Shown here piece after piece: positions 40,476-40,809 of a DNA stretch of 40,988 nucleotides (position 1 is its first letter; every line of letters starts with the position of its first letter). Below the pieces are notes generated by a model. That model was not told the DNA's origin and did no database searches. It saw only the letters and a program-made list of their open reading frames with translations. The position numbers and the translations under genes were made by a program. The DNA is taken from the sequence record PV340570.1, one strand, 5' to 3'. The stretch is from Escherichia phage PhiR49_2.

Positions 40476-40724
40476 TTAGTGAACAAACCACTCGTCAGCA
40501 GACTCCCAGGTATCTTTCAGAGTTTCCTGAACAAAAGTTTTAGCTGAATCTTTATCGGCGGTGCGCGTAACAGAAAGGCCATCGTTGCTGGTAGCTTTTA
40601 CGATCACCTCTACATCGTCATAACGTTTACTGATGCGTCGGGTTAATTCTTCCTTTAACGCATCCACAGCACCGGTTGGCATTTTAGTCATTTTTTCTTT
40701 GGCTATGCAGATTTCAATACGCAT
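40476..40724 (-). CDS. DinI-like DNA damage-inducible protein
   Basis: 82 aa; MRIEICIAK…, …[12 protein letters not shown]-terminus closely resembles DinI; two LexA-box-like sequences lie upstream. Confidence 0.75.
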
Positions 40725-40739
40725 AAAAGTCCCTCTACA

Positions 40740-40755
40740 CTGTGTTTGTATACAG
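40740..40755. promoter_or_regulatory. LexA box-like site 2 (CTGT-N8-ACAG)
   Basis: CTGTGTTTGTATACAG, 16 nt upstream of the dinI-like start codon. Confidence 0.55.
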
Positions 40756-40767
40756 TATCATTTTTAA

Positions 40768-40783
40768 CTGTATGGATAAACAG
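40768..40783. promoter_or_regulatory. LexA box-like site 1 (CTGT-N8-ACAG) overlapping the promoter spacer
   Basis: CTGTATGGATAAACAG; on the minus strand it lies between a -35 TTGACA (40789-40784) and a -10-like TAAAAA. Confidence 0.55.
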
Positions 40784-40809
40784 TGTCAAGGGTGAAGGAA
40801 AGTGATTTT

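Follow-up and report, generated by a model that had tools for sequence, protein, structure and literature searches.

Why does a lambdoid prophage carry a dinI-like gene behind two LexA boxes at its right end, and what would the product of such a gene do during the SOS response? We addressed this question in Escherichia phage PhiR49_2 (PV340570.1), and we refer to the whole analyzed stretch of 40,988 nucleotides as the window. On balance, we favor the view that the locus is a LexA-repressed, moron-like cassette at the attR end whose product serves as an SOS-timed brake on CI cleavage and UmuD processing, and we hold this view with moderate confidence.

The dinI-like gene and its prophage

The gene lies on the minus strand at 40476-40724, where the list of open reading frames gives an ATG start and 82 codons plus a stop. 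An earlier note on this DNA had called it dinI-like, and profile searches bear this out. The open reading frame matches the Pfam DinI family (PF06183) over profile positions 1-63 of 63, with an E-value of 1.1e-19 and 70.9 bits (cut-off 24.2). It also matches phrog_189, "RecA filament binding protein DinI," at 5.7e-31, with the 82-residue protein aligned to profile positions 71-149 of 151, which make up the C-terminal half. Moreover, residues 1 to 81 align with E. coli DinI (PDB 1GHH, 7YWA) in a full-length alignment at 48.7% identity, and the acidic C-terminal helix TWESAD-WF is kept between the two proteins. RefSeq names the gene "DinI-like family protein." Because the protein scores 73 bits against the NCBIfam equivalog for chromosomal DinI (NF007893), which has a cut-off of 111, we regard it as a paralog and not as the host gene. 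Given this sub-cut-off score, it is not guaranteed that the phage protein has the same biochemistry as chromosomal DinI.

The 689 bases around the locus are 100% identical in E. coli strain 3059 and 99.9% identical in O104:H4 genomes. In strain 3059, yecD and a truncated upstream open reading frame, a yecE remnant, come directly after the point at which the window ends. From these adjoining host sequences, we place the locus at the right (attR) end of a lambdoid prophage that has yecE/yecD as its insertion site, in agreement with the right-arm position proposed earlier. The first gene of the window encodes an integrase with Arm-DNA-bind_2 and Phage_integrase domains (32-1345, minus strand). 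A search of the two window ends for an att core present as a repeat found no common word of 10 nt or longer, and attL probably lies outside the window.

Between the -35 hexamer of dinI and the host junction, positions 40808-40869 hold five direct copies of TGGGGCA, three in the form TTTTGGGGCAT and one each in the forms CATGGGGCA and TTGGGACA. Phage BP-4795 carries four tandem ATGCCCCATTG repeats at the equivalent place upstream of its dinI. Because the integrase has an arm-DNA-binding domain, the TGGGGCA repeats probably serve Int as arm-type sites in the P arm of attR. The side tail fiber is 687 amino acids long in the window (37580-39643) and 791 in strain 3059 (locus L001, 2248-4623), and the tail-fiber region is therefore mosaic between these near-identical prophages.

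What kind of repressor maintains this prophage? The CI-type repressor is encoded at 6933-7628 on the minus strand and has helix-turn-helix (HTH) and Peptidase_S24 domains. Its FSCGDG motif contains a candidate Cys-Gly cleavage site, and the serine of GDSM and the lysine of VKRL align to the catalytic dyad of UmuD. From these S24 self-cleavage motifs, lambda-style, RecA-stimulated self-cleavage of the repressor is to be expected, and the prophage should follow the lambda paradigm of induction. A second HTH protein of 192 amino acids is encoded just beyond CI (6239-6817, minus strand). The early right operon opens on the plus strand, at 7756-8750, with a YdaS/Cro-like gene first and a gene for a Rha-domain regulatory protein after it.

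The promoter and its two LexA boxes

How is the dinI-like gene controlled? A promoter scan found the consensus -35 hexamer TTGACA at 40784-40789 on the minus strand and the -10 element TAAAAAT at 40760-40766 on the same strand, which can be read as TAAAAA with a 17-nt spacer or as AAAAAT with an 18-nt spacer. The promoter matches the consensus at 10 of 12 positions, and the record of phage mEp460 annotates the homologous dinI promoter. A putative Shine-Dalgarno sequence, GAGGG, recognized by its likeness to the consensus, lies at 40731-40735 on the minus strand. Along the gene strand, the order is thus TTGACA, a 17-nt spacer, TAAAAA(T), 21 nt, GAGGG, 6 nt, and ATG.

Two sites of the form CTGT-N8-ACAG fall within this short region, at the exact coordinates given in the earlier note and in the arrangement it described, one in the spacer of the TTGACA promoter and the other between the -10 element and the ATG. 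The distal box, CACTGTTTATCCATACAGTT, extends over 40766-40785 on the minus strand (core 40768-40783). It occupies the whole spacer between the -35 and -10 elements and shares 2 nt with the -35 hexamer. The proximal box, TACTGTATACAAACACAGTG, extends over 40738-40757 on the minus strand (core 40740-40755), begins 2-3 nt past the -10 element, and stops 13 nt short of the ATG. By this placement, the proximal box should cover the transcription start, which we infer to be near 40751-40753.

We scored LexA sites with a symmetric count matrix and the Berg-von Hippel heterology index (HI), both built on 27 E. coli K-12 operators. E. coli LexA operators were reportedly compiled by Lewis in 1994 and by Fernandez de Henestrosa in 2000. 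The 27 training operators follow the literature, and one of them, the ruvA operator, was confirmed letter for letter against the host sequence that flanks locus L001. These operators span HI values of 2-12. The distal box has an HI of 5.3-5.9 and the proximal box an HI of 4.9-6.3, values comparable to those of the recA, dinI, uvrA, and lexA operators. The earlier note had named low matrix scores at both sites as the outcome that would speak against its proposal; both boxes scored at HI of about 5-6.3, in the range of proven operators.

Could such a pair of boxes arise by chance, or could the boxes be operators for a phage repressor, so that the gene would not be under LexA control at all? CTGT-N8-ACAG occurs three times in the window where 0.56 occurrences are expected, and three or more were found in 0 of 100 shuffled sequences. 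The third match, at 22327, is GC-rich and scores badly, with an HI of 15. In 300 first-order Markov simulations of 41 kb, sites with an HI of 6.4 or less occurred at 0.003 per window and a pair of them never did. The distal and proximal boxes are the top two LexA-like sites of the 41-kb window; the next best has an HI of 10.7, and the matrix scan of the window found no further LexA-like sites in the prophage besides the two dinI boxes. We rejected the phage's own CI as their ligand, for the immunity region (7629-7755) contains repeats of the ACTTGAT type, unlike the LexA boxes.

Conservation points the same way. When the 66 nt upstream of the gene were compared in 18 distinct variants that align without gaps, 0 of 16 positions in the CTGT/ACAG cores varied, versus 13 of the 50 other upstream positions (one-sided Fisher p = 0.017). 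Such invariant cores speak against a promoter that ignores LexA, as does the proven LexA control of homologous dinI genes in other prophages (PMC3121763, PMC8072944). We regard both a chance origin of the boxes and their use by a repressor of the phage itself as effectively excluded, and a dinI-like gene free of LexA control as extremely improbable. LexA/SOS control of the gene is well supported by its sequence.

How might LexA act on two boxes? From center to center, the boxes are separated by 28 bp (2.7 helical turns). Because of this spacing, we suggest that two LexA dimers would bind independently rather than as a cooperative pair, each of them being enough to hinder RNA polymerase.

More distant relatives differ in how well they retain the boxes. 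The PhiR12_4 homolog, with 71% protein identity, keeps both (HI 4.6 and 7.7), and at unchanged distances of 41 nt and 13 nt. The BP-4795 homolog, at 60% identity, has both box positions in degraded form, with an HI of about 10, and a Klebsiella phage homolog, at 68% identity, has the proximal box only. Diverged E. coli copies at ssrA, prfC, and yecE carry both boxes, at 41 nt and 13 nt from the ATG, and at tRNA-Pro the proximal box is gone from a frameshifted dinI copy. Three of the four diverged copies of dinI are pseudogenes, which suggests that selection on the DinI-like protein is weak in some lineages.

Cassette boundaries, distribution, and neighbors

Where does the unit governed by this promoter end? 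A strong hairpin with a stem of 11 + 3 bp was found by RNA folding at 40375-40407, 68 nt past the dinI stop codon. It lies between dinI and a convergent remnant of tfa (tail-fiber-assembly), with the tail-fiber genes beyond. On the dinI strand, no run of U residues follows this hairpin, which also went uncalled in the terminator scan. The same hairpin arm occurs at +68 in 40 of 83 cassette copies, and the cassette probably has its 3' boundary, or a terminator, here. In comparisons with most other phages, the homologous stretch opens exactly with the hairpin's first base, 40375, and runs to 40789-40795, at the -35 hexamer.

We found no family-supported open reading frame 3' of dinI on its own strand in searches of Pfam, PHROG, and NCBIfam. 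Two minus-strand open reading frames, 39772-40383 and 40008-40322, were considered as an antirepressor or partner gene and rejected; neither matches a Pfam, PHROG, or NCBIfam family, and both overlap plus-strand genes.

The plus strand of this region holds several minor features. A 32-codon C-terminal remnant of the tail fiber assembly gene, annotated as a pseudogene, lies at 40262-40360. Between the tail fiber gene and this remnant are two conserved small phage open reading frames that belong to families annotated as of unknown function, at 39640-39918 (phrog_1361) and 39928-40221 (phrog_1443); the latter product appears hydrophobic or membrane-like by eye. RefSeq also records a 48-residue "hypothetical protein" at 40333-40479, which overlaps the hairpin, abuts dinI, and has no family match; it is probably not a gene. 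Rfam gave sub-threshold plus-strand hits only, and the tRNA scan gave none. Among these hits, those to the sRNA candidates IS009 at 40219-40317 (71 bits, cut-off 117) and CssrB at 40344-40406 (33 bits, cut-off 76) overlap the hairpin region.

The cassette is common; annotations of its gene already number in the thousands among genomes and appear in many phage records as well. The gene with its promoter is present in 1,790 of 5,426 complete E. coli genomes, 1,678 of them at 80% coverage or more (about 31%). A genome may hold up to 7 copies, and O157 strains hold 5-6. Stx1, Stx2, cdtI, mEp460, and Eib phages also carry the cassette. A single-protein search of genome contigs returned 4 near-identical loci only, and the right ends of the Sakai prophages Sp5, Sp6, and Sp8 have no copy. 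Expression datasets for O157 treated with ciprofloxacin or with SMX-TM name the chromosomal dinI only and none of the cassette copies.

Among the 83 copies in the fetched loci, the sequence upstream of the cassette is of at least 3 kinds, and that downstream of it is of 25. Upstream it follows the 3' end of an integrase gene (as in mEp460), an att arm with ATGCCCCA repeats (as here), or one other sequence. Judged by these sequence contexts, the unit of promoter, gene, and hairpin behaves as a mobile, moron-like monocistronic cassette.

In some of these contexts, other genes follow dinI in the same direction. At yecE/yecD, SLATT and reverse transcriptase genes lie behind an identical two-box promoter; elsewhere, the cargo is espK (at ssrA), a DUF4236 gene (at tRNA-Pro), or an nleA-like gene (in BP-4795). 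Cargo-bearing loci include L099 (NZ_CP124349.1), L096, and L097, each at 1-1750, and L089 at 248-1908. In L096, L097, and L099, which are E. coli genome copies, dinI is a pseudogene. Expression of cargo 3' of dinI under SOS control is thus a possibility raised by gene order.

Does the promoter, then, matter more than the protein? By this account, the function of the locus would be SOS control of co-directional cargo at prophage ends, with dinI a mere leader. The range of cargo just described fits the idea, as do two cargo-bearing copies in which the boxes are intact and dinI is a pseudogene, and there is a precedent in Gifsy, where the dinI promoter drives an antirepressor that triggers induction (PMC3121763). 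However, nothing coding follows dinI in PhiR49_2, where the hairpin gives way to convergent tail-fiber genes. Moreover, when EDL933 is treated with ciprofloxacin, expression of espK and nleA falls slightly rather than rising, and the boxes of BP-4795 are degraded, with an HI of about 10. We consider it quite improbable that cargo control explains the locus.

RecA, prophage induction, and known DinI systems

What would the protein do once made? Gao et al. found that DinI contacts RecA through the hydrophobic residues L13, L21, W71, W77, and F78 and the acidic residues E24, E69, and D76, and that its contacts on RecA are the L2 loop and a basic groove patch, as confirmed by mutagenesis (PMC9926225). 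In an alignment to E. coli DinI, all eight contact residues are kept in the phage protein, five as identical residues and three as conservative replacements. L13, L21, E24, and E69 correspond to M15, L23, E26, and D71 of the phage protein, and W71, D76, W77, and F78 correspond to W73, E78, W79, and F80. We strongly infer from these residues that the phage DinI-like protein binds activated RecA filaments.

Within the RecA groove, lambda CI engages the same elements as DinI. At physiological levels, DinI also bridges RecA-RecA interfaces and stabilizes filaments. Competition of the phage protein with groove-binding CI and UmuD is structurally plausible, and an effect on CI cleavage and induction, which the earlier note had raised as a possibility, is a reasonable hypothesis.

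We propose the following mechanism. The sigma-70 promoter would be repressed by host LexA at two operators, in the spacer and at the start site. The gene would be silent in undamaged lysogens and turned on only once RecA-stimulated LexA cleavage had freed both boxes. With one operator inside the promoter spacer and another over the predicted start site, LexA would have to fall far enough to clear both; the tight control that the earlier note read from the two boxes is a conjecture. The DinI-like protein would then supplement host DinI and occupy the elements of the RecA groove on which UmuD and CI-type repressors depend. Because it would take these elements, the protein is most likely an SOS-timed brake, one that would delay, or raise the threshold for, both cleavage of S24-type CI and processing of UmuD.

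The effect could also run in the opposite direction. Since DinI stabilizes filaments, its binding might on balance keep the inducing signal going; the phage protein would prolong the SOS response, aid repair and host survival, and possibly promote induction. Two observations are in keeping with this account: by spanning the interfaces between RecA subunits, DinI makes filaments longer, and substituting residues that are conserved here compromises stabilization; and many genomes retain several copies of the cassette, including copies in defective prophages. That DinI shares groove elements with lambda CI and UmuD favors competition, however, and we judge a mainly stabilizing role to be unlikely, with a real if small chance of being correct.

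A further proposal looks to conflict between phage and host. As an acidic, DNA-mimic-like RecA binder, the protein might modulate RecA- or ssDNA-dependent defense, or act on superinfecting phages, during the SOS response. A preprint reports that DinI altered Zorya II activity, and the cassette sits in a hot spot for cargo at prophage ends, beside defense genes in one variant. These associations are purely circumstantial, and the sequence indicates no target besides RecA; a conflict role is highly improbable.

What would a brake on repressor cleavage mean for the host? If the protein damps or delays such cleavage, it would be a dose-dependent modifier of prophage induction in about a third of E. 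coli genomes, and the several copies in Shiga-toxin producers could alter toxin release and SOS mutagenesis under antibiotic stress. That a phage DinI limits induction of Stx phages has already been suggested in print (PMC8456039). One may go further and speculate that the att-end DinI cassette is a distinct, antirepressor-free class of phage RecA modulator, that the 5-7 copies of EHEC jointly set the damage threshold and timing for CI-type cleavage and hence for Stx induction and SOS mutagenesis, and that the double operator limits output to deep SOS; we think this extended proposal doubtful. As it stands, the gene is common and well annotated, and it belongs to a known class.

How does the locus compare with known DinI systems? 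The chromosomal DinI of E. coli is like the phage protein in size, fold family, and LexA repression. The phage gene differs in being phage-borne, multi-copy, and mobile and in having two operators, whereas dinI of E. coli K-12 has a single LexA operator. Our survey of the searchable literature found no explicit description or test of a double LexA operator in the E. coli att-end cassette.

LexA control of prophage dinI homologs is already established in Salmonella. In Gifsy prophages, a dinI homolog lies directly behind a LexA box as the first gene of an operon, and the second gene encodes a small antirepressor that triggers induction (Lemire et al., PMC3121763). In the one genetic test made on relatives, a point against the brake model, non-polar dinI deletions in Gifsy-1 and Gifsy-3 left induction unchanged, and the repressors of Gifsy-1, -2, and -3 are uncleaved on induction (PMC3121763). 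In the Salmonella SOS regulon, the three Gifsy dinI genes are up 4.6- to 23-fold with nalidixic acid, and each has a single box 19 nt from the ATG with an HI of 3.9-5.3 (PMC8072944).

The Gifsy-type loci that we fetched, from mEp237, SEN34, FSL SP-016, and the Klebsiella phage ST13-OXA48phi12.4, have a terminator hairpin and one box (HI 3.0-3.9) at 18-19 nt from the ATG. Their DinI proteins are 77-79 amino acids long and 37-50% identical to the PhiR49_2 protein. A small open reading frame stands before the ninB-region genes in these loci, except in FSL SP-016, for which none is annotated.

PhiR49_2 resembles Gifsy-1, -2, and -3 in having a prophage DinI homolog behind a LexA box. The Gifsy type, however, is defined by its place in the nin region, by the dinI-antirepressor-irsA operon, and by proteins 37-51% identical to that of PhiR49_2. 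The PhiR49_2 gene lies instead at the attR end, with boxes at 41 and 13 nt, no downstream gene, and a CI of the self-cleaving type; the family searches found neither a small antirepressor open reading frame nor an irsA/ninB homolog 3' of its dinI.

Tum of phage 186 is a fusion of an antirepressor and DinI, which are two separate genes in PSP3 and Fels-2 (PMC3121763). The fused and split forms resemble the PhiR49_2 gene in being LexA-controlled, with a DinI-like second half. They differ in that the Tum systems carry the antirepressor domain or have it adjacent and belong to P2-like phages, whereas PhiR49_2 is lambdoid and has the DinI part only; the DNA upstream of its dinI-like gene consists of the promoter and the att arm. 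The gene c0943 of CFT073, labeled "dinI-like" and SOS-co-regulated on arrays, was considered as an example of the att-end cassette and rejected, as it belongs to a P2/186 split-tum locus.

The cassette also recalls the lambdoid morons lom and bor in that it appears to be a self-contained unit between the tail-fiber genes and att. Unlike these morons, it runs opposite to the late operon, is LexA-controlled and not constitutive, and has a hairpin without a U-run. As judged from gene order and promoter sequence, the att-end, monocistronic, two-operator dinI accompanied by a cleavable-type CI is a third phage architecture beside the Tum and Gifsy types. The practical value of the locus beyond confirmation lies in a comparison of these three phage dinI architectures: Tum-type, Gifsy-type, and att-end two-operator.
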